NCBI GenBank assembly: GCA_965220745.1
Contig: CBDCQT010000011.1
Span: forward strand, 334,985-398,984
Direction of reading: 5' to 3'
DNA: 64,000 nucleotides
Source of the DNA: Alphaproteobacteria bacterium
Lineage (GTDB): Bacteria; Pseudomonadota; Alphaproteobacteria; UBA828
Positions 587 to 18,944 of this stretch are shown piece by piece. A model generated the notes under the pieces. It had not been told where the DNA came from. It searched no databases and worked only from the letters and a program-made list of their open reading frames with translations. Position 1 is the stretch's first letter, and each line of letters starts with the position of its first letter. Made by a program: the position numbers and the translations under genes.

Positions 587-999
587 GAGTCGGTTCTTGT
601 CCCCGGCTTCGTCAGACTATCTTCATTAAATGAGTCTTAGTAAGGGTGGATGATGATGTTGGTGCGGATGAGGGGATTGTGGCGTTCATCCCATGGGTCG
701 GGTGAATGATCACATGGGTCGTGCCACAGACGGACTCAACGTGAAGAAGCGATGAATGACCAACGCGGCGGCGTGTTTCAACGGTTGTGGGGAAACTAGG
801 ATAGTGTGGAAGGGCACCTGGCAGCACCGGTCATGAGAGTGTTATCCCCGTTTTGACGGTTTTGTGACAGGGATGGTCGGATAAGCTGAGGATAGATTGG
901 GGGTTGTCTGGCTGGGTGCCGTTGCCCACGGATTCCCCACATGAAGGCGCTGAGAAGTCGTGCCGGTGCGGGCGCAGCGCGGAGGGTCGTAGCGGGTTC
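587..999. other. candidate chromosomal replication origin (oriC) / divergent promoter region
   Basis: 413-bp non-coding, AT-richer gap between divergent hemE and the PDRP-maf-aroE-coaE-dnaQ block. Contains several 6-7/9 DnaA-box-like 9-mers with an orientation switch and three GANTC sites. The hemE-adjacent position is known for alphaproteobacterial origins. Confidence 0.5.
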
Positions 1000-1815
1000 A
1001 TGCGAAGGTTTCATCTGCATCTGGTCTCGGACGCTACCGGCGAGACCTGCATCACCATAGCGCGCGCGGCGGCAGCGCAATTCCAGGGCGTGGATGCGGT
1101 TGAGCACCTGTGGTCGCTGGTGCGCACCGAGAGTCAGCTGCGGCAAGTTCTCGCCCACGTCGAGGCGGAGCCCGGCGTGGTGATGTTCACCCTCGTCGAC
1201 CCGCAGCTTCAAGCCCTTCTGCACGAGGAGTGCCGGCGTATCGAAGTTCCGTGCATCCCACTGCTCGACACGGCGATCACGGCGTTGAGCGGCTTCCTCG
1301 GCATCGAGAGCCGTAATCAGCCGGGCAGCCAACACGTCATGGACGAAGCCTATCTCAAGCGCATCGAGGCGATGAACTACGCGCTCGCCCACGACGACGG
1401 GCACTCGCCGACATCGCTGCGGGAGGCTGATATCGTGCTTGTCGGCGTATCGCGGACCTCGAAGACCCCCACCTGCTTCTACCTCGCCAATCGCGGTCTC
1501 AAGGCGGCCAACGTGCCGGTGGTGCCGGGTAGTCCGTTGCCGCCGGAGCTTGCAGCACCGCAGGGTGCGCTGGTGGTTGGCCTCACCTGTCACCCAGAGC
1601 AGCTGATCGATATCCGGCGAAGCCGCATGCGCATGATCGGCGATATCGGCGAGACCGCTTACGTAGACCCCCTTCAGGTCGAAGAGGAGGTGCGGCAGGC
1701 GCGGCGCCTGTACGCAGAGGCGGGATGGCCGGTGATCGACGTGACCCACCGCTCGATCGAAGAGACAGCCGCCGCGATTCTTCAGCTATACGACCGCCGC
1801 GCCCTCTCCCCCTGA
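1000..1815 (+). CDS. pyruvate, phosphate dikinase regulatory protein (DUF299 kinase/phosphorylase)
   Basis: MRRFHLHLVSDATGET N-terminus and P-loop VLVGVSRTSKTPT in the 904..1815 ORF. ATG at 1000 chosen because family members begin at this motif. Confidence 0.85.
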   Translation: MRRFHLHLVSDATGETCITIARAAAAQFQGVDAVEHLWSLVRTESQLRQVLAHVEAEPGVVMFTLVDPQLQALLHEECRRIEVPCIPLLDTAITALSGFLGIESRNQPGSQHVMDEAYLKRIEAMNYALAHDDGHSPTSLREADIVLVGVSRTSKTPTCFYLANRGLKAANVPVVPGSPLPPELAAPQGALVVGLTCHPEQLIDIRRSRMRMIGDIGETAYVDPLQVEEEVRQARRLYAEAGWPVIDVTHRSIEETAAAILQLYDRRALSP

Positions 1816-1887
1816 GCGGTTGGCGCGGCGCGGGAAGCGTATATTCTGCGGCGCAGTAAGAGCGAGCCGGGACAGGAAAGCGGACCC

Positions 1888-2529
1888 ATGGCAATGGCTG
1901 AGGCGGACCCAGCCTTGCACGGAGAGGCCGGCGAACGGAATGTGGTGCTCGCCTCTCAGGCGGCGGTGCGAGCGGCAATGCTGCGGGCTGCGGGCCTCAC
2001 ATTCACCGTGCAGCCGGCGCGGGTGGACGAAGGCGCGGTCAAGGAGGCCATGCGAGCCGAAGACCCCGAGGGCCACGGGACCGCACGGGCGCTCGCCGCC
2101 CTCAAGGCTCGGCGAGTGAGCGCCGGCGCTCCGGGCGCCTTCGTCATCGGCGCGGATCAGCTCCTGGTCTGCGGCGACGAGTGGTTCGACAAGCCGGTGG
2201 ATGTGGCCGATGCCAGGGGGCAGCTTCAGCGGTTGCGCGGCCGGCGCCACACGCTGGTGACCGCGGTCTCCGTGGTCCGCGACGGGGCCGAGATCTGGGG
2301 CGACCTGGCGTGCCCGGCGTTGACGATGCGCCCTTTCTCCGACGCCTTTCTGGAGCGCTATCTGGAGCGCGCGGGCGACGGAATCCTTGCTTGCGTCGGG
2401 GGCTACGAGGCCGAGGGTCTGGGCGCGCAGTTGCTCGCGGAGATCGAGGGGGACTGGTTCGCGGTGCTGGGCCTGCCGCTGCTGCCACTGTTGGCGTTCC
2501 TCCGCGAGCACGGGCTGGTGGAGACATGA
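1888..2529 (+). CDS. maf: Maf-like nucleoside triphosphate pyrophosphatase
   Basis: VVLASQAAVRAAML...VIGADQLLV...GGYEAEGLGAQLL pattern typical of Maf/YhdE. Conserved position upstream of aroE. Confidence 0.85.
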   Translation: MAMAEADPALHGEAGERNVVLASQAAVRAAMLRAAGLTFTVQPARVDEGAVKEAMRAEDPEGHGTARALAALKARRVSAGAPGAFVIGADQLLVCGDEWFDKPVDVADARGQLQRLRGRRHTLVTAVSVVRDGAEIWGDLACPALTMRPFSDAFLERYLERAGDGILACVGGYEAEGLGAQLLAEIEGDWFAVLGLPLLPLLAFLREHGLVET

Positions 2530-3365
2530 TTCTCTCCGGCGCGGCGCGGCTGGCCGGGGTCATGGGCTGGCCGGTGGCGCATTCGCGCTCGCCGCGTATC
2601 CACGGCTACTGGCTCGAGGAGAAGGAGATCGACGGCGCTTACCTGCCACTCGCGGTCCGGCCCGAGAGGCTCGACGCCGCGCTCGATGCGCTTGCTGCTC
2701 TGGGTTTTCGCGGGTGCAACCTGACCGCCCCGCACAAGGAGGCCGCGCTCAAGCGCATGGATACGCTGTCGGAGACCGCGCGCCGGATCGGCGCGGTTAA
2801 CACCGTGACGGTCGGGGACGATGGGGCGCTGCACGGCGACAACACCGACGGCTATGGCTTTATCAGCCACCTGCGCCAGGAAGCGCCGGGCTGGGAGGCT
2901 GGGGCGCCGGTGGCGGTGCTGGGCGCCGGCGGCGCTGCGCGGGCGGTGTTGGATGCTCTCTCTGCCGCGGGCGTTTCCGAAATCCGCCTGCTCAACCGTA
3001 CGCGCGCGCGCGCGGCGGCGCTCGCGGAGGAGGCGGGCGAGACGGTGCGTCCCCTGCCGTGGGACCAGCGGACCCACGCGTTGGCGGACTGCGGCTTGCT
3101 GGTCAACACCGCGCAGCTTGGTCAGGCGGGCAAGCCTGCGCTCGATCTCGCTCTCGACCGGCTGCCGGCCGATGCGGTGGTCTACGACTTGGTCTATGCG
3201 CCGTTGGAGACGGACCTGCTCGAGGCGGCGCGTGCGCGCGGGCATGTGGCGGTGGATGGACTCGGCATGTTGATCCACCAAGCCCGGCCCGGCTTCGCCG
3301 CCTGGTTCGGGGCCGAGGTCGAGGCGACGGCGGCACTCCGCAGCTTTGCCGCCGAAGGGCTGTGA
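2526..3365 (+). CDS. aroE: shikimate dehydrogenase
   Basis: Internal ATG at 2526 of the 2181..3365 ORF gives MILSGAARLAGVMGWPVAHSRSPRIHGYW, NLTAPHKE, NTDGYGF and VLGAGGAARAV motifs. ATGA overlap with the maf stop. Confidence 0.85.
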   Translation: MILSGAARLAGVMGWPVAHSRSPRIHGYWLEEKEIDGAYLPLAVRPERLDAALDALAALGFRGCNLTAPHKEAALKRMDTLSETARRIGAVNTVTVGDDGALHGDNTDGYGFISHLRQEAPGWEAGAPVAVLGAGGAARAVLDALSAAGVSEIRLLNRTRARAAALAEEAGETVRPLPWDQRTHALADCGLLVNTAQLGQAGKPALDLALDRLPADAVVYDLVYAPLETDLLEAARARGHVAVDGLGMLIHQARPGFAAWFGAEVEATAALRSFAAEGL

Positions 3366-3377
3366 CGGGGGTCGGCC

Positions 3378-4046
3378 GTGGTCATCCTCGGCCTCACCGG
3401 CTCCATTGGCATGGGCAAGACCACCGTTGCGAACGCCCTGCGCGCCTCCGGCGCCACCGTCTTCGACGCCGATGCGGCGGTCCACCGTCTGCTGGCGCCG
3501 GGCGGGGCCGCCGTGGCGCCGGTGCTCGCGCGCTTTCCCGATGCCGGGATGGGCGAGGGTGCCGCGCGTGCGGTCGACCGGGGAGCGCTCGGCGCGACGG
3601 TCTTCGCGGACCCCAAAGCCCTGGCGGAACTCGAGGCGATGCTGCACCCCCTGGTCCGTGCGGGCGAGCGGCGCTTTCTCTCGGCCAGCCAGCGCCGCGG
3701 CTGTGGCCTCGCGGTGCTCGACGTGCCGCTGCTGTTCGAGACCGGCGGCGAAGCCCGTTGCGACGCAACACTGGTGGTCTCGGCGCCGGCTTTCGTACAG
3801 CGCGCGCGGGTGCTGGGTCGGGCCCGGATGACCGAGGAGCGGCTGGCCGCTATCCTCGCTCGTCAGATGCCGGACTGGGAGAAGCGCCGGCGCGCGGATT
3901 TCGTGATCCGCACGGGGCTCGACAGACGGGTCTCGCGGTTCGCCGCGCGGCGCATCGCGGCCCGCCTCTCCACCGAGCGTGGCACCCGCTGGCCGCGCTG
4001 CTGGGCCGGCGCGCTGGTGCGGGCTGGAGGACGTGACCATGCGTGA
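3378..4046 (+). CDS. coaE: dephospho-CoA kinase
   Basis: VILGLTGSIGMGKTT P-loop N-terminus, FDADAAVHRLL and DVPLLFETG motifs. GTG start. Confidence 0.85.
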   Translation: MVILGLTGSIGMGKTTVANALRASGATVFDADAAVHRLLAPGGAAVAPVLARFPDAGMGEGAARAVDRGALGATVFADPKALAELEAMLHPLVRAGERRFLSASQRRGCGLAVLDVPLLFETGGEARCDATLVVSAPAFVQRARVLGRARMTEERLAAILARQMPDWEKRRRADFVIRTGLDRRVSRFAARRIAARLSTERGTRWPRCWAGALVRAGGRDHA

Positions 4047-4716
4047 GGTCGTGCTCGACACCGAGACCACCGGCATCGATCCGGCGGCAGGCCACAGGAT
4101 CGTCGAGGTCGGTGCGATCGAGCTAGTCAACCACATCCCCTCCGGCCGGCGCTTCCAGCGTTATCTCGACCCCGAGCGCGACATGCCGGAGGACGCCGAA
4201 CGCGTGCACGGGCTCACCCGCGCCTTCCTCGCCAAGCACCGGCGCTTCGCCGACGAAGTTGAGCCGCTGCTCGCCTTCATCGGCGATGCCAAGCTCGTCA
4301 TGCACAACGCGCCCTTCGATCTCGGCTTCCTCAATGCCGAGCTGGAGCGCATCCGCAGGGCCCCGATCCCGGCGGAGCGGACGGTGGATACGCTCTCCAT
4401 CGCGCGGCGCAAATATCCTGGCGCGCCGGCAAGCCTCGATGCGCTTTGCAAGCGCTTCGGGATCGATCGCTCCATGCGGGAGAAGCACGGCGCGCTGCTG
4501 GATGCCGAGCTGCTCACCGAGGTCTATCTGGAGCTCACTGGCGGCCGTCAGCCTGGGCTCGAGCTGCAGCGGGCGGCGCCGGTGCGGGACGCAGCGCCCG
4601 CGCCCCGTGCCGACCGTGCGCCGCGTGCGCCGCGGCCGCACGAACCCACTGCGGAAGAGGCGGCGGCCCACGCTGCCTTCGTCGCCACGCTCAAAGACCC
4701 GATCTGGAACGATTGA
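4039..4716 (+). CDS. dnaQ: DNA polymerase III epsilon subunit (3-5 exonuclease)
   Basis: MREVVLDTETTGIDP (Exo I), HNAPFDLGFL (Exo II), HGALLDAELL (Exo III). ATG at 4039 overlaps the coaE end by 8 nt. Confidence 0.9.
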   Translation: MREVVLDTETTGIDPAAGHRIVEVGAIELVNHIPSGRRFQRYLDPERDMPEDAERVHGLTRAFLAKHRRFADEVEPLLAFIGDAKLVMHNAPFDLGFLNAELERIRRAPIPAERTVDTLSIARRKYPGAPASLDALCKRFGIDRSMREKHGALLDAELLTEVYLELTGGRQPGLELQRAAPVRDAAPAPRADRAPRAPRPHEPTAEEAAAHAAFVATLKDPIWND

Positions 4717-4809
4717 GGGGAGGGAGGCGGGCCGGGCGTGGCGCCGCCTCGACACCCTACCGGCGATGCGGCAGGATCGCGCGGCTGTTGCGAAGAGGGA
4801 GAGGCCGCC

Positions 4810-5544
4810 ATGACCTACACAGTGCTTGCCAGCAATCCGGACACCGGCGAGATCGGAATCGCGTCCACGACAATCACGATCAACTTCAGCCGGACCTTCC
4901 CGGTGCACCGGCACCTCGTGCCCGACCTGACGGAGCGGGGAATCATCGTTGCCCCGATGGCGACCATCCATCCGCAGAACGGCCACCGGCTCTGCGATCT
5001 GCGGGATGCCGGAGTCGGCTGGGACGATATGGAAGCCGAGCTGGAGAAGCACGACGAACACTGGACCTGGCGGCAGATCGGCGCGGTGACGGCCAGCGGC
5101 GAGACCTGGGTCCGCACCGGGTCTGACGCCTGGAACCACGCGAGCCATGTCGTGGCCGAGGGCTCGATCGCCATGGGCAACTACATGGATGGCCCCGGCC
5201 CGGTGCAGGCGATGGCCAAGGCGCTCGAGGACAACCGGGGCGAAGCCATGGACGAGCGGCTGCTGCGCGCCATAGAGGCTGGCAAGGCCGCCGGCGGGCA
5301 GGGTCAGCCGGATCTCGGCCCGGTGCCGGAATCCTGGGCGATGATCCAGGTGTTCAATGGCAAGCAGCCGTGGCCGGCGGTCGATGTGCGGGTGGACTTC
5401 GACGTAGACCCGGTGCCGAAGCTGCGGCGCCTGGTCACGCAGCTCAAGAACATGGACAAGGTGCTGCACACGATGTCGTTCGACCCGTCGCGGACGTTCG
5501 ACGTCTACGGCGTGGTCTTCGACATGTACAACGCCCAAGTGTAG
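4810..5544 (+). CDS. DUF1028-family (Ntn-hydrolase-like) protein
   Basis: MTYTVLA start with Thr at position 2, as in DUF1028 proteins. ATG at 4810 inside the 4738..5544 ORF. Coding-like composition. Confidence 0.65.
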   Translation: MTYTVLASNPDTGEIGIASTTITINFSRTFPVHRHLVPDLTERGIIVAPMATIHPQNGHRLCDLRDAGVGWDDMEAELEKHDEHWTWRQIGAVTASGETWVRTGSDAWNHASHVVAEGSIAMGNYMDGPGPVQAMAKALEDNRGEAMDERLLRAIEAGKAAGGQGQPDLGPVPESWAMIQVFNGKQPWPAVDVRVDFDVDPVPKLRRLVTQLKNMDKVLHTMSFDPSRTFDVYGVVFDMYNAQV

Positions 5545-5551
5545 CTCGGTT

Positions 5552-5566
5552 CCCCGGCTTCCGGGG
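5552..5566. terminator. short GC hairpin between convergent genes
   Basis: CCCCGG-ctt-CCGGGG perfect 6-bp stem in the 36-nt gap between the stops at 5544 and 5581. No U-tract. Confidence 0.35.
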
Positions 5567-5580
5567 CGCAGGCGAGCCTG

Positions 5581-6450
5581 TCAACCGATCCGGGCCATCA
5601 CCCCGCCGTCGACCGGGAGTGCGACGCCGGTGATGAAGCGGCCGGCGTCAGAGGCGAGGAAGAGCGAGGCCTGGGCCACGTCCCAGGCGCTGCCCATGCC
5701 GCCCCTGAGCGGGCTCCAGGTGTCGCGGTCGGCGGCGATCTCCTCGCGCGGCTTGCCGTAGCGGCGGGCCTGCGTGTCCACCGCCATGGGCGTGTCCATG
5801 TAGCCCGGCAGGATGGCGTTCACGCGCACACCGTCGGGCGCGCAGTCGAGCGCAAGCTGGCGGGAGAAGGCGATCATCCCTGCCTTGCTGGTCTTGTAGG
5901 TGACCGACTTGTAGTCGACCACGGCTGCAATCGACGAGATGTTGGTGATCACGCCGCTGCCCTGGCCGCGCATGACCGGGACCACGTGCTTGCAGGCCAT
6001 CACCGTGCCGCGCAGGTTGATCGCCATCACCCGGTCGAAGCTCGCCTCGTCGAGGTCCGCGAGCGGCGAATCCCCGCCGGTGTAAGCGACGCCCACGTTG
6101 TTCTGCAGCACGTCGATGCGCCCGTGCCGCTCGACGACCGAGCGGACGACAGCGAGCAGCGCCTGCTCATCGGTCACGTCGGCGACCATCGCCTCGGCGG
6201 CACCGCCTTCCGCCTGGATCATGGTGGCAGTTTCCTCGGCGGACTTCCGGTCGCGGTCGAGTGCGACCACGTGCGCGCCGGCGCGGGCGAAGAGCACGCA
6301 GGCGGCCCGGCCGTTGCCGATCACCGGCCCCGGCGTCTGGCCGGCGCCGGCCACGATCGCGACCCGGCCATCGAGGCTCAGTGAGGGGCTTTGCCAGGGC
6401 GCCGCGATGGCGGCGGAAGCCTCTTCGGTCATGGCGATGTCCTGGTGCAT
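5581..6450 (-). CDS. SDR family oxidoreductase
   Basis: VAIVAGAGQTPGPVIGNGRA Rossmann motif, NNVG, and the S...YKTSK catalytic pattern. Start could be 6432 (MTEEAS). Confidence 0.85.
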   Translation of the reverse strand: MHQDIAMTEEASAAIAAPWQSPSLSLDGRVAIVAGAGQTPGPVIGNGRAACVLFARAGAHVVALDRDRKSAEETATMIQAEGGAAEAMVADVTDEQALLAVVRSVVERHGRIDVLQNNVGVAYTGGDSPLADLDEASFDRVMAINLRGTVMACKHVVPVMRGQGSGVITNISSIAAVVDYKSVTYKTSKAGMIAFSRQLALDCAPDGVRVNAILPGYMDTPMAVDTQARRYGKPREEIAADRDTWSPLRGGMGSAWDVAQASLFLASDAGRFITGVALPVDGGVMARIG

Positions 6451-6642
6451 GGTGGGCGGGTGCCCGAAGGCTCCGCAGGCGCGCGCGGCTTGTCAAGGCG
6501 GGTGGTTGCAAAGATGGGGTTCTGGACGAAGTTGTGTCAGCGTAGAGTCAGTGCCAAGAAAGCTAGATTTTGGGGACATACGCCTATGAGCCACAGCATG
6601 TCGTAGACACGCGATAAACTCCTGTTCCTGACAGCGGACTGT

Positions 6643-7233
6643 TTGCCGCGAACGAATGCTTGCCCGGCACGCAAATTGACTTATATATCAATAACTGATC
6701 AAATCCAGGCGCTGGTGAGAGACGGTCGCCTGCATCACATCGAGCCGGTTGATCCTAGCTTAGAGGTGAAGCGGGTCATGGTGGTGGCGAACGACGTTCA
6801 AGCATTGCTCGATGAACCATGGCCCAGTGACTGGCTGGAGCGGCGCGCAGGTAGCCTACGGGCCGACTTAGAGATGTTCGTTAGGGGGCAGGTCCTGAGC
6901 GTTTCAATGACACCCTATGGGCACAAGAAGGCGTATATGGGATTGTTGGACCCTCCGACGAGGGGAGTCTGGGAGATCAGGAGCCGCGATCCGAATCCAA
7001 GCTTGCGGGTCTTCGGGCATTTTGCAGATGTAAATCTGTTTGTAGCATTAGTTTGGCACCCTCGATCCGTCGAAGTCGATGGAAGATCACCTTTGGGCAG
7101 CGCGCGTGATCTGAGCTGGGAGTTCGCAAAATTGGAATGTGAAAAAGCTTGGCAAGGTCTGTTTCCAAATCACCGGCCGCGAATCAGGGAGAAAGTCAGT
7201 GACTTCATCTCAGAAGATGCAATTCTGGTCTGA
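6643..7233 (+). CDS. hypothetical protein with weak RelE/HigB/Gp49-like core (low-GC island gene 1)
   Basis: The segment GVWEIRSRDPNPSLRVFGHFADVNLFVALVWH resembles the conserved strands of RelE/Gp49 toxins. TTG start at 6643; alternative ATG at 6778 preceded by GAGGTG. Confidence 0.5.
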   Translation: MPRTNACPARKLTYISITDQIQALVRDGRLHHIEPVDPSLEVKRVMVVANDVQALLDEPWPSDWLERRAGSLRADLEMFVRGQVLSVSMTPYGHKKAYMGLLDPPTRGVWEIRSRDPNPSLRVFGHFADVNLFVALVWHPRSVEVDGRSPLGSARDLSWEFAKLECEKAWQGLFPNHRPRIREKVSDFISEDAILV

Positions 7234-7642
7234 AATCGAGGATCTGGAAGCTCGTATACCGAAGGGTAAACTGGAGTATTTGCGCGAGCGGTTCCGCAAC
7301 GATTTGTACGACTTTATTCTCAGAAAGTATTTGGAGCAGAGGAAAGGGCGGAACCTTAATCAAGCTGAACTGGCGCGAAGGCTGTCCTATGATCCCGCCC
7401 GGCTCAATCGGCTGTTAGGCGCTCCCGGCAATTGGACACTAGCGACGGTGAGCGATTTGCTCGTGGGAATTGCTGGTGAGTCCTTGGACCTTCAATCGAC
7501 CGCGGTTCGGGGAAATACTGTGCGGAATCAAAATGTGCACGACCTGCTACAGTCGGGGGCGGGTTTGACTATAGAGAGGCATGATGCCGGATCGACAGGG
7601 ACAGGCAGCGTACGCACCATTAGAACGGTGCATGTTCAATGA
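7217..7642 (+). CDS. XRE-family helix-turn-helix protein (low-GC island gene 2)
   Basis: LNQAELARRLSYDPARLNRLLGAPGNWTLATVSDLL is an XRE-type HTH. ATG at 7217 overlaps the gene 1 end by 17 nt. Confidence 0.6.
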   Translation: MQFWSEIEDLEARIPKGKLEYLRERFRNDLYDFILRKYLEQRKGRNLNQAELARRLSYDPARLNRLLGAPGNWTLATVSDLLVGIAGESLDLQSTAVRGNTVRNQNVHDLLQSGAGLTIERHDAGSTGTGSVRTIRTVHVQ

Positions 7643-8061
7643 CTGAAAACGCTGTGCCGAAGGTGGAAATCCTCTCTGCCATCGTGTGCGACGATGTGCG
7701 GGAAGAGCATAACGGTAAGGAAATTCTAATTGGAGTGTATAGCGGTACAATAGCCGTTCAAGAAATTCCAAGTCCACCTTTACCATTAAGATGTTGGGTT
7801 AATCTCAGGATTCAAAGCTCGAGTAAAGTAAGGCTATACTTTAGAGCACGGGATCATGACAACAATGAGATTTTTCAGGCACAATTGAAGACAGAGACGG
7901 ACGACGAGATAGGAATGGGAAGTGTTCCTTTGGGGCCTATCATGTATACGCTTAAAGAGCCAGAGGGAAGCCTAAGGATCGACTATAAGGAGGGAGACGG
8001 CGATTGGTCCAACATTATTACAAAGAACGCAAGGTACCAAAGCAAGCAAACGTTGGGATAG
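7639..8061 (+). CDS. hypothetical protein (low-GC island gene 3)
   Basis: 140-aa ORF whose ATG shares ATGA with the stop of gene 2. No motif I can assign with confidence. Confidence 0.5.
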   Translation: MTENAVPKVEILSAIVCDDVREEHNGKEILIGVYSGTIAVQEIPSPPLPLRCWVNLRIQSSSKVRLYFRARDHDNNEIFQAQLKTETDDEIGMGSVPLGPIMYTLKEPEGSLRIDYKEGDGDWSNIITKNARYQSKQTLG

Positions 8062-8133
8062 TATTCGTTGCCGACTGGGTCATCGACATCGCGTTCAGAA
8101 CCCAATCCGACATCCCACGAGGAGCACACAGAG

Positions 8134-8970
8134 ATGAAAATCGGCGCCGTCATCTTCGCCACCGACTATTGCATCGCGCTGACCGAGCTCGCGCCTGCGC
8201 TTGAGGAGCGGGGGTTCGACTCGCTCTTCGTGCCCGAGCACACCCACATCCCCGCCAGCCGACGCTCGCCCTGGCGGGGCGGGGGAGAGCTGCCGCGGGA
8301 ATACTCCCACACGCTCGACCCCTTCGTGGGGCTGGCGGCAGCCGCGGCAGTCACCAGCACGCTCCGGCTCGGCACCGGCATCTGCCTGGTCACCGAGCGC
8401 GACCCCATCGTCACCGCGAAGGCGGTGGCGAGCCTCGATCTGGTCTCGGGCGGGCGCTTCGACTTCGGCATCGGCGCGGGCTGGAACGCCGAGGAGATGG
8501 AGCACCACGGCACCCGCTTCGAGACCCGTTTTCGGGTCATGGAGGACCGGGTCAAGGCGATGCAGGCACTCTGGGCTGCGGACGAGGCGAGCTACGAGGG
8601 CGAGTTCACGTCCTTCGAGCCGAGCTGGTCCTGGCCCAAGCCGGTGCAGAAGCCACATCCGCCGATCCTGCTCGGCGGAGAGTCCGTGCACACCATGCGC
8701 CGGATCATGGATTTCTGCTCGGGCTGGTTCCCGCGCGGCCCGCTTCTGCCCGATCCGGCCGAGGGCATGGGCAGGCTCCGCGCTGCCGCCGAAGAGGCCG
8801 GGCGCGATCCCGCGACTGTCTCCGCCACGGTCTTCGGTGCCAAGCCCGAAGCCGGCTATCTGGATGCTTGTCGGGAGGCCGGGATGGACCGTGCGCTACT
8901 GATCCTGCCGCCCGAAGGGCGCGACGGGGTGATGCCGGTCATCGACCGCTACGCGGCGCTCATCGGATAA
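8134..8970 (+). CDS. LLM-class (luciferase-like) flavin/F420-dependent oxidoreductase
   Basis: MKIGAVIFATDY...FDSLFVPEHTHIP...GTGICLVTERDP...GRFDFGIGAGWN pattern. ATG at 8134 preceded by GGAG. Confidence 0.85.
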   Translation: MKIGAVIFATDYCIALTELAPALEERGFDSLFVPEHTHIPASRRSPWRGGGELPREYSHTLDPFVGLAAAAAVTSTLRLGTGICLVTERDPIVTAKAVASLDLVSGGRFDFGIGAGWNAEEMEHHGTRFETRFRVMEDRVKAMQALWAADEASYEGEFTSFEPSWSWPKPVQKPHPPILLGGESVHTMRRIMDFCSGWFPRGPLLPDPAEGMGRLRAAAEEAGRDPATVSATVFGAKPEAGYLDACREAGMDRALLILPPEGRDGVMPVIDRYAALIG

Positions 8971-10444
8971 GCAGGCGCCGCCCGAGGTGGGCCGGAGTCA
9001 ACGAGCGAAAAGCCTCTCTCGCAGCCTCGGCGCCGAGCGCGCCCCAAAGCGCGCCACCGAGCACGGCCCCTCCAAGCGCGCCCCATGGCTTCCGTTCCGC
9101 AAGCGGCTGCACAGCCCCGCGCCTGCCCTTGACACGGACCTTGAAGGATTCGGCCGGCGCGGGCACGGGGAACTGCGTGGTCTTCAGGTTGTAGGCGGCC
9201 CGGTCGAGGTCGAGGTCAACCTCGTGCAGGATGGTCGCCATGGTGACGGCGATCTGCACCTCGGCGAAGCCGTTGCCGAGGCAGCGATGGGGGCCGAGGC
9301 CGAAGGGCGCGTAGACGTAGGGCTGCTTGTGCTCCGCACGCTCCGGCGTGTAGCGGTCGATGTCGAAGCGCTCGGGTTCGGGGAAGTATTCCGGCAAGTA
9401 GTGGGGAACGGCGGTGGCGATGATCAACCGCTCGCCGGCGGGAATGCGATGGCCTGCGAACTCGAACGAGTTGGCGGCGGTGCGGATGAGCATCGGGGTC
9501 ACTGGATACATCCGCATGGTTTCCATGGCCGCGCGGTGCGTCGCGTCCATCTCGCGTAGCGCCTGCTCGGCCGGCATGTCGCCGTTGAGGAGGGCGTCGG
9601 CCTCCTCCCGCACCTTCGCCAGCACGTCCGGGTTGCGCAGCAGCGCATACAGCATGAAGGCGGTGGTGCCTGCCACCGTGTCCAGCGCCGCGACGAAGGG
9701 GCCCATCGCCGCGATCTTCAGGTCCGCCTCGGGAAAGAACTTCGGGTCGGCGTCGTGCAAGTCCAGCAGGTCGTCGATCAGGTCCGGCTCCGCACCGTGC
9801 CGCTCCCGCATGGCGCCGGTGTGGCACTCGATCACCTCGTGGTAGAGCTTGTCCACGCGTGCCGAGGCGCGGCGGAAGCGCGGCGACCAGCGCATATAGG
9901 TGCCGGGGACCAGGGTGGCCGAGAGCAGCCCGTGAACGTAGCGGACCAGGTCGTCGTTGTAGGGGCGGGGCGAAACGCCGGCCACCAGGGTGCCCACCTG
10001 GTCGGTGACGATCCGCTGCAGCGCCGGCACCGCGGGCATGGACCGCGAGAGCGGCCACGTCGCGATCTCCCGGCGAGCGATGTCGACCAGGCCGTCGATG
10101 TGCTCCACGGCGTACTCGCGGGAATAGCCCCGCCGTAACGTCCGGCGAAATGCCGCGTGCTCGGGCCCGTCGGAGCTCAGCGTCGACCGCGCTGCGCCGA
10201 ACCAGGCGTTGAAGCCGCTCCAGAACTCGAACGAGCGAACGTGCTTCGTGCCCTCGCGCGCGAGGAAGCGGTTGGCCTCCATCCCGGCCAGCACGGTGAA
10301 GCGACGGTTGAGCAGCCGCATACCGTAGACCGGCCCGAGTTCCAGGTAGCTGTCGGTCATGAAGGCGCGTATGTCGCGCGCCATGTCGAAGACGCTGCCA
10401 ACAACCGGCAGGCCGCGCGCGAACGGTATCGTCGAGGACGCCAT
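8960..10444 (-). CDS. cytochrome P450 with C-terminal hydrophobic Gly-rich tail
   Basis: Heme-binding loop FGLGPHRCLGNGFA and an ETMR (ExxR) motif. ATG at 10444 (MASSTIPFARGLPVVG). Confidence 0.9.
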   Translation of the reverse strand: MASSTIPFARGLPVVGSVFDMARDIRAFMTDSYLELGPVYGMRLLNRRFTVLAGMEANRFLAREGTKHVRSFEFWSGFNAWFGAARSTLSSDGPEHAAFRRTLRRGYSREYAVEHIDGLVDIARREIATWPLSRSMPAVPALQRIVTDQVGTLVAGVSPRPYNDDLVRYVHGLLSATLVPGTYMRWSPRFRRASARVDKLYHEVIECHTGAMRERHGAEPDLIDDLLDLHDADPKFFPEADLKIAAMGPFVAALDTVAGTTAFMLYALLRNPDVLAKVREEADALLNGDMPAEQALREMDATHRAAMETMRMYPVTPMLIRTAANSFEFAGHRIPAGERLIIATAVPHYLPEYFPEPERFDIDRYTPERAEHKQPYVYAPFGLGPHRCLGNGFAEVQIAVTMATILHEVDLDLDRAAYNLKTTQFPVPAPAESFKVRVKGRRGAVQPLAERKPWGALGGAVLGGALWGALGAEAAREAFRSLTPAHLGRRLLIR

Positions 10445-10715
10445 CTCCCAGCCCTCTGCGGTCGTGCCCCTGCCCCTTGTCCCGCGGGGCGGGCGGGCTA
10501 CAGGGTGCCGCCGCCTGCTCCTATCATGGGGTGGGTGACGACCGAATACCAGCACTTCCGCTATGTCGGAAGGCGCGCTCCGGTGTGCCGCCGGCGGGCG
10601 AACCGAGTGGCGCGAGAACTCGGGCTATTCTGGCTTGTCGCTGCCTCTGTCCAGACTGTTCGGGGGTGCTCCGCCCGTGCTATAGGCGCGCGCCGACTTC
10701 AGGGAGAGAAATACG

Positions 10716-11054
10716 ATGGACGTGACGGTCGAGCGGCAGGAGAGCGTGTTGGTCGCCCGCGTGAACGGGCGGATCGATCCCAAAGGCGCCGGGTCGCTGG
10801 AGACGACGATCACGGCGGCGCTCCAGAATGGCGACCATGCCATCATCCTGGACTTCGAGCAGCTCACCTATATTGGCAACGTCGGCGTTCGGGCGCTGCG
10901 GATCACCGCCAGGGTCCTGCGCGACCGAGACGTCCGCATGGCCGTCTGCGCACCGCAGGGTGTCGTCGCCGCGGTCTTCTCAGGCGGCGGCGTGGACAGG
11001 CTCATCGCGGTCTACCAGACCAGGGCCGCGGCGCTCGAGGCCCTCGACGACTGA
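10716..11054 (+). CDS. STAS-domain protein (anti-sigma-factor antagonist-like)
   Basis: 112 aa, SpoIIAA-like layout: VLVARVNGRID...IILDFEQLTYIGNVGVRAL...AVCAPQGVV. Confidence 0.8.
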   Translation: MDVTVERQESVLVARVNGRIDPKGAGSLETTITAALQNGDHAIILDFEQLTYIGNVGVRALRITARVLRDRDVRMAVCAPQGVVAAVFSGGGVDRLIAVYQTRAAALEALDD

Positions 11055-11279
11055 CAAGGGGCTGCGTTCTTCGCGGCCGTCCGCCACAGCGACGGGGAGG
11101 ATGGCCGCCGAATTGCAGACCCTCTGGTATGCCACTCGCGCATATGTGACTGCCCGCGGGGTTGGCACGCGCTATGATCGTTCGTATCGTTCCGCCCCGT
11201 CCGGTTGCAGGGACCGGGCGAGGACATGAGATTTCCCACGGGGGCCCAGAGCGGTGCCCGCCCTCCCAGGGGGTAGAGA

Positions 11280-11492
11280 GTGGACGCGGCACGTATCGTC
11301 ATCGAGGTCCTGCAGTACTACGGCTATGTCGGGCTCGCCGTCACGGCCGCGTTTCTGCTCTATGGCATCGAGCGGGTGGATGAGGGCGCGCGGCGCTCCT
11401 ACGCCTTCCGGCCGCTCCTGATCCCCGGCTGCATCGTGCTCTGGCCGCTGGTGATTTGCCGCTGGGTCGCGGCGGAACGGCAGCGCGGCTGA
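11280..11492 (+). CDS. small membrane protein (2 predicted TM helices)
   Basis: 70-aa ORF with hydrophobic segments YYGYVGLAVTAAFLLYGI and LLIPGCIVLWPLVIC. First gene of a tightly packed same-strand cluster. Confidence 0.45.
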   Translation: MDAARIVIEVLQYYGYVGLAVTAAFLLYGIERVDEGARRSYAFRPLLIPGCIVLWPLVICRWVAAERQRG

Positions 11493-11505
11493 GCGGGCTC
11501 TCGCC

Positions 11506-11685
11506 ATGCAGCGCCGCCACCGCACCACCCACGCCTACATGTGGAAGGTGCTTGCCATCTTTTTGCCCGCGATGCTGATCGCGGCGCTCGCCATTCGCCA
11601 GCACGGGCCGATGGAGAAATCCGCCGTCCAGATCGAAAAGCCCGCGGCCGAAACCGAAGCGCCCGCCGCCACGGCGGACGAGTAA
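11506..11685 (+). CDS. small membrane protein (59 aa, below ORF-track cutoff)
   Basis: Hand translation: MQRRHRTTHAYMWKVLAIFLPAMLIAALAIRQHGPMEKSAVQIEKPAAETEAPAATADE. One TM helix. Fills the gap between neighbours. Confidence 0.35.
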   Translation: MQRRHRTTHAYMWKVLAIFLPAMLIAALAIRQHGPMEKSAVQIEKPAAETEAPAATADE

Positions 11686-11700
11686 GGGGGCGGCTGAGCG

Positions 11701-12783
11701 ATGAGCGTGCGTTACGCGCCGGTCGGCTGGAACCGCAACAAGATCATCTACGACGTCGTGGTGCTCGCCGCCGCCGTCGCCTACATCCTGCTCTACATCA
11801 AGATCGCGCCGGGCTTCCAGGACGTCACCAAGCCGACCAGCGGGGCGATCCTGCGGGCGCAGGCCTTCGGTACCTGTGCCTTCCTGATGCTCACCTTCAT
11901 CCTCTGCATCGGGCCGCTCACACGCCTGGATGCGCGCTTCCTGCCGCTGCTCTACAACCGTCGCCACTTCGGCGTGATCACGTGCGCCATCGCGTTTACG
12001 CACGCCACCCACGTGGTCAGCATCTATTACTCGTTCAGCCCGCTGAACAAGTACGTCGCGGTGCTGGCGAGCAACACGAGCTACGACCGCTTCCTCGGCT
12101 TCCCGTTCGAGACCTTCGGCATCTTCGCGCTCTTCCTGTTGTTGGTGCTCGCGGCCACGAGCCACGACTTCTGGCTCAAGTTCCTGACACCGCCGATCTG
12201 GAAGGCGATCCACATCTCGGTCTACGTCGCCTATGCGGCGATCGTCTGCCATGTGGCGCTCGGCTCCCTGCAGTCGAAGCAGAGCCCGCTGCTCGCGGTC
12301 ATCGTGGGCTTGAGCGTGGTGGCGGTCACCGGCCTCCACCTTGTCGCCGGGCGTATCGAGCGGCAGAAGGACCGGAATACCGCCGAGGATGCGGCCGGGA
12401 GTACCGACGAGGCGCCCTGGGTCGTCGCCGGCGACGTGGAGTCGGTGCCCGACGGCCGCGGCATCGTCGTGCCGCTGGAGGACGGCGAACGCGTTGCGGT
12501 GTTCCGTTATGGTGACAAGCTCTCTGCGCTCGCGAATGTCTGCGCCCATCAGAACGGCCCGCTCGGCGAAGGGCGCATCATGGACGGTTGCGTGACCTGC
12601 CCGTGGCACGGTTTCCACTACCGGCCCGAGGACGGCTGCGCGCCGCCGCCCTTCACCGAGAAGGTCGCGACCTATCGGCTCAAGCTCGATGGCCGGCGGA
12701 TCCTGCTCGATCCCCGACCAAACGAGCCCGGCACCTATGTCGAGCCCGTGCGCGTCGCTCCCCCGAGCGTGACGGAGGCGTAA
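11701..12783 (+). CDS. ferric-reductase-like (MsrQ/YedZ-type, di-heme b) transmembrane domain fused to a C-terminal Rieske [2Fe-2S] domain
   Basis: Six hydrophobic helices with conserved His (RRHFGV..H..H; SHDFW..WKAIH..Y), then Rieske ligands CAHQNGPL ... CPWHGFHY. Confidence 0.8.
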   Translation: MSVRYAPVGWNRNKIIYDVVVLAAAVAYILLYIKIAPGFQDVTKPTSGAILRAQAFGTCAFLMLTFILCIGPLTRLDARFLPLLYNRRHFGVITCAIAFTHATHVVSIYYSFSPLNKYVAVLASNTSYDRFLGFPFETFGIFALFLLLVLAATSHDFWLKFLTPPIWKAIHISVYVAYAAIVCHVALGSLQSKQSPLLAVIVGLSVVAVTGLHLVAGRIERQKDRNTAEDAAGSTDEAPWVVAGDVESVPDGRGIVVPLEDGERVAVFRYGDKLSALANVCAHQNGPLGEGRIMDGCVTCPWHGFHYRPEDGCAPPPFTEKVATYRLKLDGRRILLDPRPNEPGTYVEPVRVAPPSVTEA

Positions 12784-12784
12784 G

Positions 12785-13573
12785 ATGGCAGGCAGGGCGC
12801 GTGATCCCGGTTTCTTCGTCGGCTACCTGAACAGCGTGCCGCGCCCGCTCGCGATCTTCCTGGTGGTCGGTGCTGCCGCGCTCGTCGGCGGCATGGCTGG
12901 GCTGGCCTTCGCGCTCGGCACCAACGTGAACGACCCCGGCGACGGCACGTTCGCCCGCAAGCTCGGCAAGCAGGAGATGACCGGGGTCCTGCTGGAGAAG
13001 CCCTATCCGATCCTGCGCGTCCGCCCGGACGCGAAAAATCCCGAAGCGCGCACGGTGATGCTCACCGTGCCCGGCAAGCGCAGTGTCAAGCGGCGCGGCC
13101 GCAAGCTCTTCGATCAGCTCGTCGACGTGAAGGGCTTCATGTTCCAGCGCGGCGACATCGACATGCTGCAGGTCCAGGGCAAGGGCGCGTTGAAGGCGGT
13201 GGAGGTCGCCGAAGGCGAGCCGCCACCCGAATTCACCCCGGCGCCCGCCGAATCCCTCGGCCGCTGGCGCCTCATCGGCGAGATCTGCGACAGCAAGTGC
13301 CATCTGGGCGCCATGCGGCCGGGCGACGGGCTCGCGCACAAGGCCTGCGCCAACCTTTGCATCTCCTCCGGCGCACCGCCGATCTTCGTCACGGCGGAGG
13401 AAGGCGCGGTCGAGGGCGAGACCTTCCTGCTGATGGCCGATCAGGACGGCGGGCCGCTCCCCGACCATTTCGGCGACTACGTGGCGATCCTCATTCAGCT
13501 CGAAGGCGAGGTCGAACGGCTCGACGATCTGCTGGTTTTCAAGGTCGATATCGACGCGGCCAAGGTGTTCTGA
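12785..13573 (+). CDS. membrane-anchored hypothetical protein with four-Cys motif
   Basis: N-terminal TM helix LAIFLVVGAAALVGGMAGLAFAL, later CDSKCHLGAMRPGDGLAHKACANLC. Start is 2 nt after the previous stop. Confidence 0.6.
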   Translation: MAGRARDPGFFVGYLNSVPRPLAIFLVVGAAALVGGMAGLAFALGTNVNDPGDGTFARKLGKQEMTGVLLEKPYPILRVRPDAKNPEARTVMLTVPGKRSVKRRGRKLFDQLVDVKGFMFQRGDIDMLQVQGKGALKAVEVAEGEPPPEFTPAPAESLGRWRLIGEICDSKCHLGAMRPGDGLAHKACANLCISSGAPPIFVTAEEGAVEGETFLLMADQDGGPLPDHFGDYVAILIQLEGEVERLDDLLVFKVDIDAAKVF

Positions 13574-13576
13574 GCG

Positions 13577-13828
13577 ATGAAGCGTGTCGCCTGGATCATA
13601 GCCGGCGCGATCGTGACCGCCGGCCTCGGCTACGCCTCCTACTGGGTCTATCTGGAGGTGCAGCAGCAGGTTCGCGGCACGCTCATTTCAGGCTTCGGCA
13701 TCTTCGTCGGCGTCATGGGTGCCTTCGCCATGCTCGGCGTGGCCCACATCGTCTTCACCTACGCCGAGCGCCTGCTGTGCAAGCGCAAGACGCCCCCGGC
13801 CGAAGACAAGACTCCAGAGGGCGCGTGA
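13577..13828 (+). CDS. small membrane protein (2 TM helices)
   Basis: 83 aa, VAWIIAGAIVTAGLGYASYWVY and ISGFGIFVGVMGAFAMLGVAHIVF. Start is 4 nt after the previous stop. Confidence 0.5.
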   Translation: MKRVAWIIAGAIVTAGLGYASYWVYLEVQQQVRGTLISGFGIFVGVMGAFAMLGVAHIVFTYAERLLCKRKTPPAEDKTPEGA

Positions 13829-13881
13829 CGATCGAATAGACGCGGCACGCGAGCCGTTCAGTGGCGGGAGGCAGGGTCCCC

Positions 13882-15492
13882 ATGAACAAGATCGCGATCA
13901 AGACGCTCGACGAGTTGGAAGACCGACAGCCGGCCTATGCGCTGGTCGGAGACATCGATCTTTGCTTGGTTCGCTACGACGACAATGTCTCGGTCTTCTA
14001 CGGCCGCTGCCTGCACCGGGGCGCGCTCATGGCCGACGGCTACGTCGACGGTGAGAACCTGATCTGCGGCGTCCACTATTGGGACTACCGCCTCGATACC
14101 GGCGTCAGCGAATACAACAACGAAGAAATCCTGCCCAAGTTCGCCTCGTGGATCGAAGACGGCCAGGTCCTGGTCGATGCGGACGAGATCGGCGCCTGGG
14201 AGGAGGACCACCCGCAGCCCTTCAAGCGGGACGAGTACCTCGGCCTCTACGCCGACACCCACCCCGCAGCCGAGGAGCCCCACGTCGGGCTGATCCAGGG
14301 CTACGCCAGGGACGGCCTCAGCAAGACCGGCCATCACGGCGTCGTGGTGGCCATGGGCGTGCCGCGCCAGGACCTGCCGAGCTGGGACGACATTCAATTC
14401 ATCACGGCGCAACTCCACCGCATGCCGCACCTGGATGACGAGCCGGTCGGCACCGAGGTGGTGATCGGGCCCAACGCCCAAAAACCGCTCACCCTCGAGA
14501 TTCCGCTCCTCGTCTCGGACATGAGTTTCGGGGCGCTGTCGGAGCCAGCCAAGGTCTCACTCGCGCGCGGCGCCGAGCTTTCCGGCACCGGCATCTGCTC
14601 GGGCGAGGGCGGCATGCTGCCGGAGGAGCAGCAGGCCTGTAGCCGTTACTTCTACGAGTATGCCTCGGGCCGCTTCGGTTTTTCGTGGGACAAGCTTGAG
14701 AACGTGCAGGCCTTCCACTTCAAGGGCGGCCAGGGCGCCAAGACCGGCACCGGCGGTCACCTGCCGGGAAACAAGGTGAGGGGCAAGATCGCCGAGGTGC
14801 GGGGGCTGCCGGAAGGCTCGCCGGCGGTCTCGCCGCCGCGCTTCCCCGACTGGACCGACTGGCGCCAGGTGAGGGATTTCGCCGACGAGGTGCGGAGTCA
14901 CACCGGCGGCATCCCGATCGGCTACAAGCTCTCGGCCCAGCACATCGAAAAGGACATCGACGCCGCGCTTGAGGTGGGGGTCGATTACATCATCCTGGAC
15001 GGCCGGGGCGGCGGCACGGGCGCTGCGCCGCTCATCTTCCGCGACAACATCTCGGTGCCGACCATCCCGGCGCTCGCACGGGCGCGCCGCCATCTCGACG
15101 CATCGGAGCGCGAGGACGTGACGCTGGTGATCACGGGCGGCCTGCGCAAGCCCGCCGATTTCGCCAAGGCGCTGGCGCTGGGCGCGGATGCGGTCGCGGT
15201 CTCCAACGCCGCGATCCAGGCGATCGGCTGCCTCGGCATGCGCGCCTGCCACACCAACAACTGCCCGGTCGGTATCGCGACCCAGAAGCCGAGTCTGACC
15301 GCGCGGATCGAGGTCGAGAAGTCGGCGCGGCGCCTTGCCAACTTCTTCGAGGCGAGCGTCGAGCTGATGAAGATCATGGCGCGTGCCTGTGGGCATTCGC
15401 ACCTGAACCAGCTCGCGCTCGACGATCTCGAGACCTGGAAAGAGGATATGGCGCGGCTGTCGGGCGTCGCCTACGGCGGCGTCGGCGGCTGA
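13882..15492 (+). CDS. Rieske [2Fe-2S] domain fused to a glutamate-synthase-like FMN/[3Fe-4S] domain
   Basis: N-terminal CLHRGALM ... CGVHYWDY Rieske ligands. GltB-type core FKGGQGAKTGTGGHLPG, ILDGRGGGTGAAP and the cluster motif CLGMRACHTNNCPVGIATQ. ATG at 13882 after GGAGG. Confidence 0.85.
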   Translation: MNKIAIKTLDELEDRQPAYALVGDIDLCLVRYDDNVSVFYGRCLHRGALMADGYVDGENLICGVHYWDYRLDTGVSEYNNEEILPKFASWIEDGQVLVDADEIGAWEEDHPQPFKRDEYLGLYADTHPAAEEPHVGLIQGYARDGLSKTGHHGVVVAMGVPRQDLPSWDDIQFITAQLHRMPHLDDEPVGTEVVIGPNAQKPLTLEIPLLVSDMSFGALSEPAKVSLARGAELSGTGICSGEGGMLPEEQQACSRYFYEYASGRFGFSWDKLENVQAFHFKGGQGAKTGTGGHLPGNKVRGKIAEVRGLPEGSPAVSPPRFPDWTDWRQVRDFADEVRSHTGGIPIGYKLSAQHIEKDIDAALEVGVDYIILDGRGGGTGAAPLIFRDNISVPTIPALARARRHLDASEREDVTLVITGGLRKPADFAKALALGADAVAVSNAAIQAIGCLGMRACHTNNCPVGIATQKPSLTARIEVEKSARRLANFFEASVELMKIMARACGHSHLNQLALDDLETWKEDMARLSGVAYGGVGG

Positions 15493-15645
15493 GAGCGCGT
15501 CCGTCTTTGACGAACGCGCGACAGGCCGCGACCGCGGCCCGCCGCTTAAGCGGCGCCCTCACGGAGGCGCCGGCCGTAGGCCGGCTGCCGTGAGCGATAA
15601 AGTGCGAGGGCGTTTCCGTGCGAAACGGGAACGCTTTAGCGAGCG
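15493..15645 (+). repeat. stacked-hairpin intergenic repeat, copy A
   Basis: Shares long identical blocks (GCGACAGGCCGCGACYGCGGCCCGCCGC, GGAGGCGCCGGCC, GGCCGGCTGCCGTGAGCGA) with 19794-19961 and, inverted, 62346-62487. Fills the convergent gap exactly. Confidence 0.85.
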
Positions 15646-16704: not shown

Positions 16705-16763
16705 TGAGGTGATCTCCTTGTTCGCGAAGGCCGCGGCCGGGGGCCGCGCGCGGGTGACAAGTG

Positions 16764-17822: not shown

Positions 17823-17843
17823 GGATAGCGCTCCTCATTGGTA

Positions 17844-18827: not shown

Positions 18828-18944
18828 CTTGCGGTGAAACAACGTGGGAATTCGCTCGCTTCGTCATACCGTGCGTCAATTCTCGGAGGTTTGTGATATT
18901 TTGCGCCTATTGATGATTTTTTACTGAACTTGGGGAATTAGCGC

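Follow-up and report, generated by a model that had tools for sequence, protein, structure and literature searches.

The closest described relatives of the locus analyzed here are the toxin-antitoxin-chaperone (TAC) modules, exemplified by M. tuberculosis HigB1–HigA1–SecB(TA) (Rv1955–1957), E. coli HigBAC and CmdTAC, in which toxin, antitoxin and third gene follow each other in this order. To our knowledge, TAC is the clearest case of a third protein that both stabilises an antitoxin and senses phage, a role so far tied to SecB homologues. SecB-like chaperones accompany the HigBA, MqsRA and HicAB pairs through variable carboxy-terminal chaperone-addiction (ChAD) tails (PMC5105189), and the chaperone of E. 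coli HigBAC also senses phage and can be swapped between systems (bioRxiv 10.1101/2024.02.24.581848). Likewise close are the two-gene systems HigBA and Gp49(HI1419)–HI1420 with RelE/ParE toxins of the BECR-fold (PMC11980606). Here, we analyzed a stretch of 64,000 nucleotides, termed the window, from an alphaproteobacterium of the UBA828 lineage (assembly GCA_965220745.1, contig CBDCQT010000011.1, positions 334,985–398,984), containing a low-G+C block of three open reading frames (ORF1, ORF2 and ORF3). We regard this block, with a probability of roughly 0.55, as a three-component type II toxin-antitoxin-like module that is mobile among lineages yet old at this site.

The block shares with TAC the order of the three genes, an ORF1 whose predicted structure is closest to HigB1 itself, a variable carboxy-terminal extension on ORF2 and a third gene found behind several families: DUF6941, the family of ORF3, with ORF1/ORF2, Gp49/XRE and HicAB, and the SecB-like proteins with HigBA, MqsRA and HicAB. 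In contrast to TAC, ORF3 is modelled as an all-β sandwich instead of the tetramer-forming α/β fold of SecB, ORF1 (182–185 aa) carries extra segments and lies outside all Pfam RelE/ParE models, and the third slot also takes other families. Since ORF3 is not SecB-like in its model, TAC membership is ruled out at the level of the predicted structure. With HigBA and Gp49–HI1420 the block has in common the toxin-first order, overlapping genes and an XRE-type helix-turn-helix (HTH) antitoxin, as well as a W/F-E-x-R ... x-R-v/i-x-G motif in β2–β3 of ORF1 and one ORF2 relative matching dnstrm_HI1420. It differs from these pairs by an ORF1 which is ~60–80 aa longer (conserved amino-terminal domain plus insert) and stays below every Pfam threshold, by a third gene that is nearly always present (none coupled in 5/54 loci), and by a candidate operator on the toxin start codon. 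Tripartite toxin-antitoxin systems are a known kind; what had not been described before is this family of putative toxins, this third component and a candidate operator placed over the start codon.

A previous reading of this DNA, made from the letters alone and referred to as the sequence-only reading, had already proposed a tripartite toxin-antitoxin-like module with the toxin first. The predicted fold of ORF1, the HTH of ORF2, the co-occurrence and the conserved gene order support this proposal as far as computation reaches. The locus comprises the following features.

6676..6691, no strand: palindrome, degenerate copy TTGACTTATATATCAA, overlapping the ORF1 start codon; candidate ORF2 operator
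6676..7233, plus strand: ORF1, putative toxin, 185 aa from TTG 6676 (family alignment, AlphaFold2, Foldseek)
7186..7191, plus strand: Shine-Dalgarno-like GGGAGA, 7 nt before GTG 7199 and within the ORF1 3' end (read from the sequence)
7199..7642, plus strand: ORF2, putative antitoxin and autorepressor, 147 aa (XRE-type HTH, variable tail)
7639..8061, plus strand: ORF3, DUF6941 (PF22091), 140 aa (Pfam 26.7 bits, phrog_31406, relatives)
6500..8100, no strand: low-G+C block flanked by the SDR gene and by the luciferase-like monooxygenase (LLM) gene (contrast in G+C and in G+C at third codon positions, GC3)
5581-6450, minus strand: SDR gene, left neighbour of the block
8134-8970, plus strand: luciferase-like monooxygenase gene, right neighbour of the block

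As previously read, the three ORFs are all found on the plus strand and fill the low-GC block. The homologues of ORF1 begin with MSI..., corresponding to window position 6685, which reads ATA here and not ATG. The closest usable in-frame start is TTG 6676, yielding 185 aa, and TTG is a usable start codon; the 196-aa form, the upper size given earlier, would start at 6643 and is unsupported by homologues. For ORF2, the start best backed by homologues is GTG 7199, giving a 147-aa protein, and the equivalent GTG was chosen by the gene calls in two related loci (L004 and L006). The 17-nt overlap given before for ORF1 and ORF2 is correct with respect to ATG 7217, the better-backed GTG resulting in an overlap of 35 nt, and the ATGA shared by the ORF2 stop and the ORF3 start was verified at 7639–7642. 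ORF1 and ORF2 are adjacent, co-oriented, overlapping and small, always paired, with one of them DNA-binding (HTH at the family level), which is the organisation of a type II operon.

The recurrence of the trio, for which the sequence-only reading had suggested a search, was assessed by two seeded locus scans. The DUF6941-seeded scan, covering one genome per species and using iterated hidden Markov models (HMMs) and Pfam checks, yielded 43 loci, mostly from Alphaproteobacteria. In 26 of them, DUF6941 was preceded by an ORF1-like and then an ORF2-like gene. Five further loci carried a divergent ('MLTFNTT') or unknown first gene followed by an ORF2-like HTH gene, three a Gp49 toxin followed by an XRE HTH gene (L018, L028, L037), and three HicA (PF07927) followed by HicB (L030, L034, L049); DUF6941 stood alone in five, and one contig was too short for judgement. 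The ORF1-seeded metagenome scan gave 78 loci, 65 of them with at least 350 nt downstream, and the third gene could be judged in 54. An ORF2-like gene was located directly behind the ORF1-like gene in 65/65 informative loci. The third gene was DUF6941 in 26/54, a 146–157 aa family distantly related to DUF6941 in 6, an unrelated family of ~215–250 aa in 13 and a singleton in 4, and no coupled third gene was found in 5. Together, the two scans establish ORF1–ORF2 as an obligate pair and DUF6941 as a promiscuous third component, also found behind two classical toxin-antitoxin families, in a slot that is exchangeable. Because DUF6941 elsewhere follows Gp49 plus XRE and HicA plus HicB, ORF1 holds the slot of known toxins.

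We next consider ORF1, in which the peptide quoted earlier, GVWEIRSRDPNPSLRVFGHFADVNLFVALVWH, was located. Structure prediction, as proposed in the sequence-only reading, gave a best AlphaFold2 model with a predicted local distance difference test (pLDDT) of 76 and a predicted template-modelling score (pTM) of 0.77. The model shows a RelE/HigB-like core at approximately residues 30–160, together with an amino-terminal extension, a conserved insert of low confidence (residues 73–90) and a carboxy-terminal tail, where the amino-terminal helix-strand unit is confidently predicted. Its elements, E31–35, H36–42, H49–66, E95–99, E107–115, E118–126 and H143–159, follow a β–α–α–β–β–β–α order, and β–α–α followed by a three-stranded antiparallel sheet is the order of RelE/ParE proteins. 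A Foldseek search of the Protein Data Bank (PDB) with this model returned HigB toxins exclusively at ranks 1–7 (probability 0.80–0.99, E 0.008–0.07, template-modelling score (TM) on target 0.46–0.54). The top match was M. tuberculosis HigB1 (Rv1955, 7awk; E 7.6e-3, probability 0.99, TM 0.52 on target), accompanied by S. pneumoniae HigB (6af3/6af4) and, lower down, by HigB2 (5jaa) and ParE1 (8c24). Topology and matches argue moderately, not strongly, for the RelE/HigB-like core within a larger protein that had been suspected.

The locus was compared with PADLOC-DB v2, Pfam, NCBIfam, PHROG and Rfam. For ORF1, 0 Pfam families were obtained at E<=1, the gathering score of the RelE/ParE superfamily was not reached, and no NCBIfam, PHROG or PADLOC model matched, with PADLOC likewise yielding 0/123 for the ORF1 relatives. 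Weak sub-threshold matches to Gp49 (PF05973) were obtained for 8/123 diverse family members, the best at E 0.0057. The word-indexed search returned 20 close relatives of ORF1, and the exhaustive profile search 1,011 representative clusters (50% identity) at E<=1e-3 and 684 at E<=1e-10, so that ORF1 stands for a sizeable, previously undescribed family of ~1,000 clusters. Its conserved arginines (R99, R108 and R127 in the 182-aa numbering) are compatible with growth inhibition through mRNA cleavage (or gyrase poisoning) and no proof of it. The earlier suggestion that the module may not match described families stands for ORF1, which lacks Pfam and NCBIfam assignments, and for the lack of a PADLOC match, and is qualified by ORF3, which belongs to a named, uncharacterised Pfam family.

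The assignment of ORF2 as an XRE-type HTH protein was borne out at the family level. Window ORF2 itself gave weak, sub-threshold HTH_3/31/37 matches (E 0.02), and among its 28 aligned relatives HTH_3 was found in 16 (best E 1.5e-10) and HTH_31 in 13, with one member each matching the dnstrm_HI1420 and the Xre-like-HTH antitoxin models. PHROG assigned ORF2 to phrog_1373 (transcriptional regulator), and its only PADLOC match was PDC-M64C at E 0.021. The protein consists of an amino-terminal helix, the HTH at approximately residues 50–100 and a carboxy-terminal tail of 45–50 aa, rich in S/T/P/A and poorly conserved between relatives in the alignment. Long carboxy-terminal tails are likewise present on the XRE and HicB antitoxins preceding DUF6941. 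The tails preceding DUF6941 differ in composition from those preceding the ~220-aa family (S/T 0.21 vs 0.12, charged 0.19 vs 0.28).

Aligning the loci upstream revealed a conserved nucleotide block, (A)TTGAC(T/A)TATATGTCAA(T), comprising a 16-bp palindrome that includes the ATG. It follows the scheme TTGAC-N6-GTCAA, with the intact form TTGACTTATATGTCAA and the window variant TTGACTTATATATCAA. About 30 genome loci, most of the metagenome loci and a Rhizobium tropici plasmid carry the palindrome precisely over the ORF1 start, and Synechococcus phage MinM1 keeps the arms around another centre (ATTGACTTCAATGTCAAT). It is the sole strongly conserved block not explained at the protein level. Because it is retained although the proteins are only 30–40% identical, and because genomes of 65–70% G+C would not typically use its codons (TTG ACT TAT ATG TCA ATA), the constraint acts on the nucleic acid. 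A role as an RNA hairpin was considered and set aside: the predicted energy at the ORF1 start is −5.7 kcal/mol (−1.6 for the window sequence), and the variants alter one arm with no compensating change. The weak stem and these uncompensated changes favour DNA recognition over RNA pairing, and the palindrome is probably the operator of an ORF2 HTH dimer. We also considered a −35-like element ~12–17 nt upstream of the palindrome combined with its TATAT centre as −10, which was discarded as the transcription start would fall within the conserved coding amino terminus.

In the window, position 6687 has changed from G to A, which disrupts the right arm (now ATCAA) and replaces the ORF1 ATG by ATA. 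This change is derived, since ATG and palindrome are intact in L139 and L141, two contigs with ~90% identity. With the family ATG and one operator arm mutated, the toxin output in this genome may be reduced. SDR gene and palindrome are separated by a spacer of 174 nt both in the window (6501–6675) and in L006 (8863–9037), with no detectable nucleotide similarity between the two spacers; similarity resumes precisely at the palindrome.

ORF3, for which no motif had been recognised at first, belongs by sequence to DUF6941. It scored 26.7 bits against PF22091, just below the gathering score of 27, and its relatives with 92–97% identity (P0021–P0023), as well as more distant ones, carry precomputed PF22091 annotation; 28 relatives were found in total, forming chains of close relatives, and PHROG returned phrog_31406. 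Across the alignment, the amino-terminal motif VCDDVRxExNGKxxLIGVYS is (nearly) invariant. The AlphaFold2 model (pLDDT 90) is an all-β sandwich of ten strands and zero helices, whose Foldseek matches in the PDB are the sandwiches of UNC119, PDE6-delta and RhoGDI (E ~5e-5 to 7e-4). These are lipid-binding solubilising factors, small sandwiches shielding the tail of a partner. With TM of 0.35–0.47, root-mean-square deviations of 7–9 Å and identities of 8–13%, the best matches probably reflect a generic sandwich and imply neither homology nor lipid binding. A SecB-like fold was considered and ruled out on the all-β model, and no Pfam match to SecB was obtained. PADLOC left ORF3 and its relatives (0/26) unmatched, and searching the PDB sequences and Pfam with the DUF6941 profile found nothing. 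The full-text literature search for DUF6941 or PF22091 retrieved no paper, and as far as the literature was searched this is the first description of DUF6941 taking a systematic place behind antitoxin genes.

Stand-alone members of the family were found in different surroundings. In L039 (3120–5438) and L043 (3524–5408), the lone DUF6941 gene is situated downstream of a conserved ORF of 258–281 aa, with a divergent ORF of 151–174 aa nearby and no antitoxin-like gene.

The alternative occupants of the third slot form two recognisable families. The ~215–250 aa family replaces DUF6941, coupled and behind the same palindrome, in L057 (1467–2126), L059 (2512–3174) and L060 (2019–2669) as well as in the 13 metagenome loci. 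It is characterised by the motifs RY.F, NDGVVV and ERR...NRYFS.APL.T..H, and its profile matched nothing among the PDB sequences and Pfam. The 146–157 aa family (MENIWSVLCSK...) is found in L079 (1873–2313), L091 (1159–1596), L100 (3972–4445) and L105 (3193–3645); based on an hhalign probability of 44% (E 2.4e-4), it appears to be a remote relative of DUF6941.

The drop in composition seen earlier was confirmed, with an exact recount of 25/60 G+C for 7741–7800 and 43/60 for 8401–8460. The sliding profile falls from 0.67–0.73 in the flanks to 0.45–0.56 between ~6450 and 8100, and the trio (6676–8061) has 50.9% G+C compared to 66.6% for the entire window. GC3 values are 0.57, 0.57 and 0.48 for ORF1, ORF2 and ORF3, and 0.92, 0.88 and 0.89 for the neighbouring SDR, LLM and P450 genes. 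The observation that marks of mobility are lacking was correct, as no tRNA (window 1–20000), no integrase and no meaningful flanking repeat around the trio was found, and Rfam gave no match. The notion of an island that arrived here has to be revised: the block is flanked by these SDR and LLM/P450 genes also in L005, L006/L012 (a 4.0-Mb alphaproteobacterial metagenome-assembled genome, MAG), L007, L139 and L141 (metagenome contigs). Because this site is common to several relatives, the block is not recent but was inherited within the clade, without drifting to the host composition, and we rejected a recent insertion via integrase, tRNA or repeats. Between the window and L006, protein identities are 87–91% for the flanks and only 70–76% for the trio. 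The ratios of nonsynonymous to synonymous substitution rates (dN/dS) relative to L139 and L141 were 0.30–0.33 for ORF1, 0.12–0.17 for ORF2 and 0.06–0.08 for ORF3, indicating that all three are real genes under purifying selection. Across many lineages, the G+C of the trio was below that of the flanks in 33/33 loci, by 0.03–0.21, which fits repeated horizontal transfer.

Some relatives at this site carry a disrupted module. In L005 (4985–9806, 9968–11177), a cluster of insertion sequence (IS) and transposase genes interrupts the ORF1 homologue, leaving an amino-terminal fragment at 8073–8303 and the rest at 9968–10327, and DUF6941 is present as a broken gene, in two overlapping ORFs that include a short duplication, a state that looks like module decay. 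In L007, ORF2 is split.

As to the mechanism, the toxic activity, its neutralisation, the binding of the operator and the function of ORF3 are all inferred, and we propose the following model. ORF1 would be the toxin: the predicted RelE/HigB-fold core embedded in this larger protein would probably cleave mRNA in a ribosome-dependent manner. ORF2 would serve as antitoxin and autorepressor, its XRE HTH binding TTGAC-N6-GTCAA at the ORF1 start codon and a different part of the protein neutralising ORF1. ORF3 might be an accessory factor that binds the antitoxin, most probably at the disordered carboxy-terminal tail, and keeps the antitoxin stable or chaperones it. As proposed from the example of SecB in TAC, a trigger, e.g. 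a phage protein, could compete for this binding and thereby free the toxin. Translational coupling through the 35-nt overlap and the ATGA would tie the three products to one transcript.

Several observations weigh against this interpretation. For the toxin, four of the five AlphaFold2 models of ORF1 reached a pLDDT of only 50–65, from a shallow alignment. Comparing the ORF1 family with three Gp49 toxins by hhalign gave a probability of <1%, and an HMM search against five Gp49 sequences E of at least 0.04; both aligned only the W/F-E-x-R...R-v-x-G hairpin (β2–β3), insignificantly, and a homologue search with the Gp49 protein of L018, meant to deepen the Gp49 profile, returned the query alone. 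Profile searches of the PDB sequences with the ORF1 family gave nothing useful, and Foldseek of the ORF1 model against the viral structures of BFVD yielded no informative match. Given a HigB-like fold but insignificant Gp49 profile comparisons, we regard ORF1 as likely, not established, to be a RelE/HigB-fold toxin on the basis of its model. For the remainder of the module, the scan for promoters and terminators found no convincing promoter 5' of ORF1 and no terminator 3' of ORF3. ORF3 is not SecB-like, its PDB matches being generic β-sandwiches, and DUF6941 also occurs as stand-alone genes (L039, L043, L045, L051, L054), its conserved motif being independent of the partner. A terminal alternating-hydrophobic, β-like pattern was present in 13/53 antitoxin tails, compared to 7.1 ± 2.3 in shuffled sequences, a weak trend, and together with the tail compositions it hints weakly at a contact between tail and ORF3. 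Another family occupies the third slot in ~40% of the ORF1–ORF2 modules, so that a single fixed mechanism for this slot is not guaranteed.

This exchangeability is also the starting point of a different explanation, where ORF1–ORF2 would be a non-toxic regulatory cassette, an HTH repressor with its partner or sensor, driving swappable cargo, and ORF3 the effector or payload. The same ORF1–ORF2 pair and palindrome indeed precede DUF6941, the 146–157 aa and ~220 aa families or singletons, the strongest nucleotide conservation lies in a regulatory-looking palindrome, and ORF3 is the most constrained gene (dN/dS 0.06–0.08). We nevertheless consider such a cassette unlikely: DUF6941 also follows bona fide toxin-antitoxin pairs (Gp49–XRE, HicAB), whose first gene belongs to a known toxin family, the ORF1 fold resembles HigB toxins, and DUF6941 is a small sandwich without a recognisable catalytic site which, unlike a toxic effector, occurs alone without a neutraliser. 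Still less probable in our judgement is an ordinary HigBA-like pair with ORF3 as a functionally unrelated, co-transcribed passenger. It would agree with stand-alone DUF6941 genes in several phyla, with the weak correlation between tail and third gene, and with the contact between ORF3 and ORF2 being an inference only, but it leaves aside the ATGA overlap, the order kept in dozens of loci across divergent lineages, and the recruitment of DUF6941 behind three unrelated antitoxin families, all with long carboxy-terminal extensions. The position of DUF6941 behind known toxin-antitoxin pairs and the stop/start overlap thus weaken both explanations.

Of a different nature is the idea that the module in this genome is a decaying, largely inactive remnant which has lost its ATG and damaged its operator. 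The ATA and the broken right arm are restricted to the window with L139 and L141 intact, the highest dN/dS is that of ORF1, and the disruptions of ORF1 and ORF3 in L005 and of ORF2 in L007 point in the same direction. On the other side, the frame of 185 codons from TTG 6676 is open and retains every invariant family residue, a TTG can serve as start, and ORF2 and ORF3 show no damage and are under strong constraint, for which reason we think this improbable. Such decay is compatible with a three-component toxin-antitoxin-like module, as it touches only the functional state in the window.

A more far-reaching version of the toxin-antitoxin interpretation is put forward tentatively, and we would sooner doubt than accept it. 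DUF6941 and the alternative third-slot proteins might constitute a new, SecB-independent class of toxin-antitoxin accessory proteins which hold the antitoxin tail and act as exchangeable sensors retargeting one 'warhead', with ORF1 as an unrecognised large branch of the RelE/HigB fold that has its operator on its own start codon. If DUF6941 does a job comparable to that of SecB, toxin-antitoxin modules with an added helper or sensor would have arisen at least twice, from unrelated folds. An uncharacterised Pfam family as well as a family of ~1,000 clusters without a model would then gain a function, and annotators and defence-system finders a three-gene signature including a diagnostic 16-bp palindrome. 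Since Rhizobium tropici CIAT 899 (on pRtrCIAT899b) and Synechococcus phage MinM1 are cultured carriers, the hypothesis is directly testable.

On the conjugative plasmid pRtrCIAT899b (L143, 478106–479422), the trio is complete with an exact palindrome, set among tyrosine recombinase and IS21/IS66/IS110 genes; its annotation leaves out the middle HTH gene and labels the other two 'hypothetical protein'. In MinM1 (ON981384.1, L144, 22210–23607), an isolated temperate cyanophage, the trio lies directly 3' of, and co-oriented with, the gene for an S24-peptidase (CI/LexA-like) repressor, and in the viral contig L056 it adjoins a CI-like gene. Furthermore, a Gp49–XRE–DUF6941 trio is located between terminase and portal genes in L055, and in L008–L011 the trio is immediately upstream of a terminase gene. 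Such phage positions are typical for addiction or exclusion genes expressed from prophages. Next to the block in the window, the plus-strand ORF 4738–5544 (268 aa), between a dnaQ-like region and the SDR gene, has no equivalent in L006, which is collinear apart from this (blastn gap, window 4711–5568), and marks a second, minor gene-content difference beside the trio. In a Rhodospirillaceae MAG (L001, 2103–3612), the trio adjoins a RES toxin/Xre_MbcA_ParS_C antitoxin pair and an additional overlapping pair of small genes (75 and 78–82 aa), together forming a small toxin-antitoxin islet.

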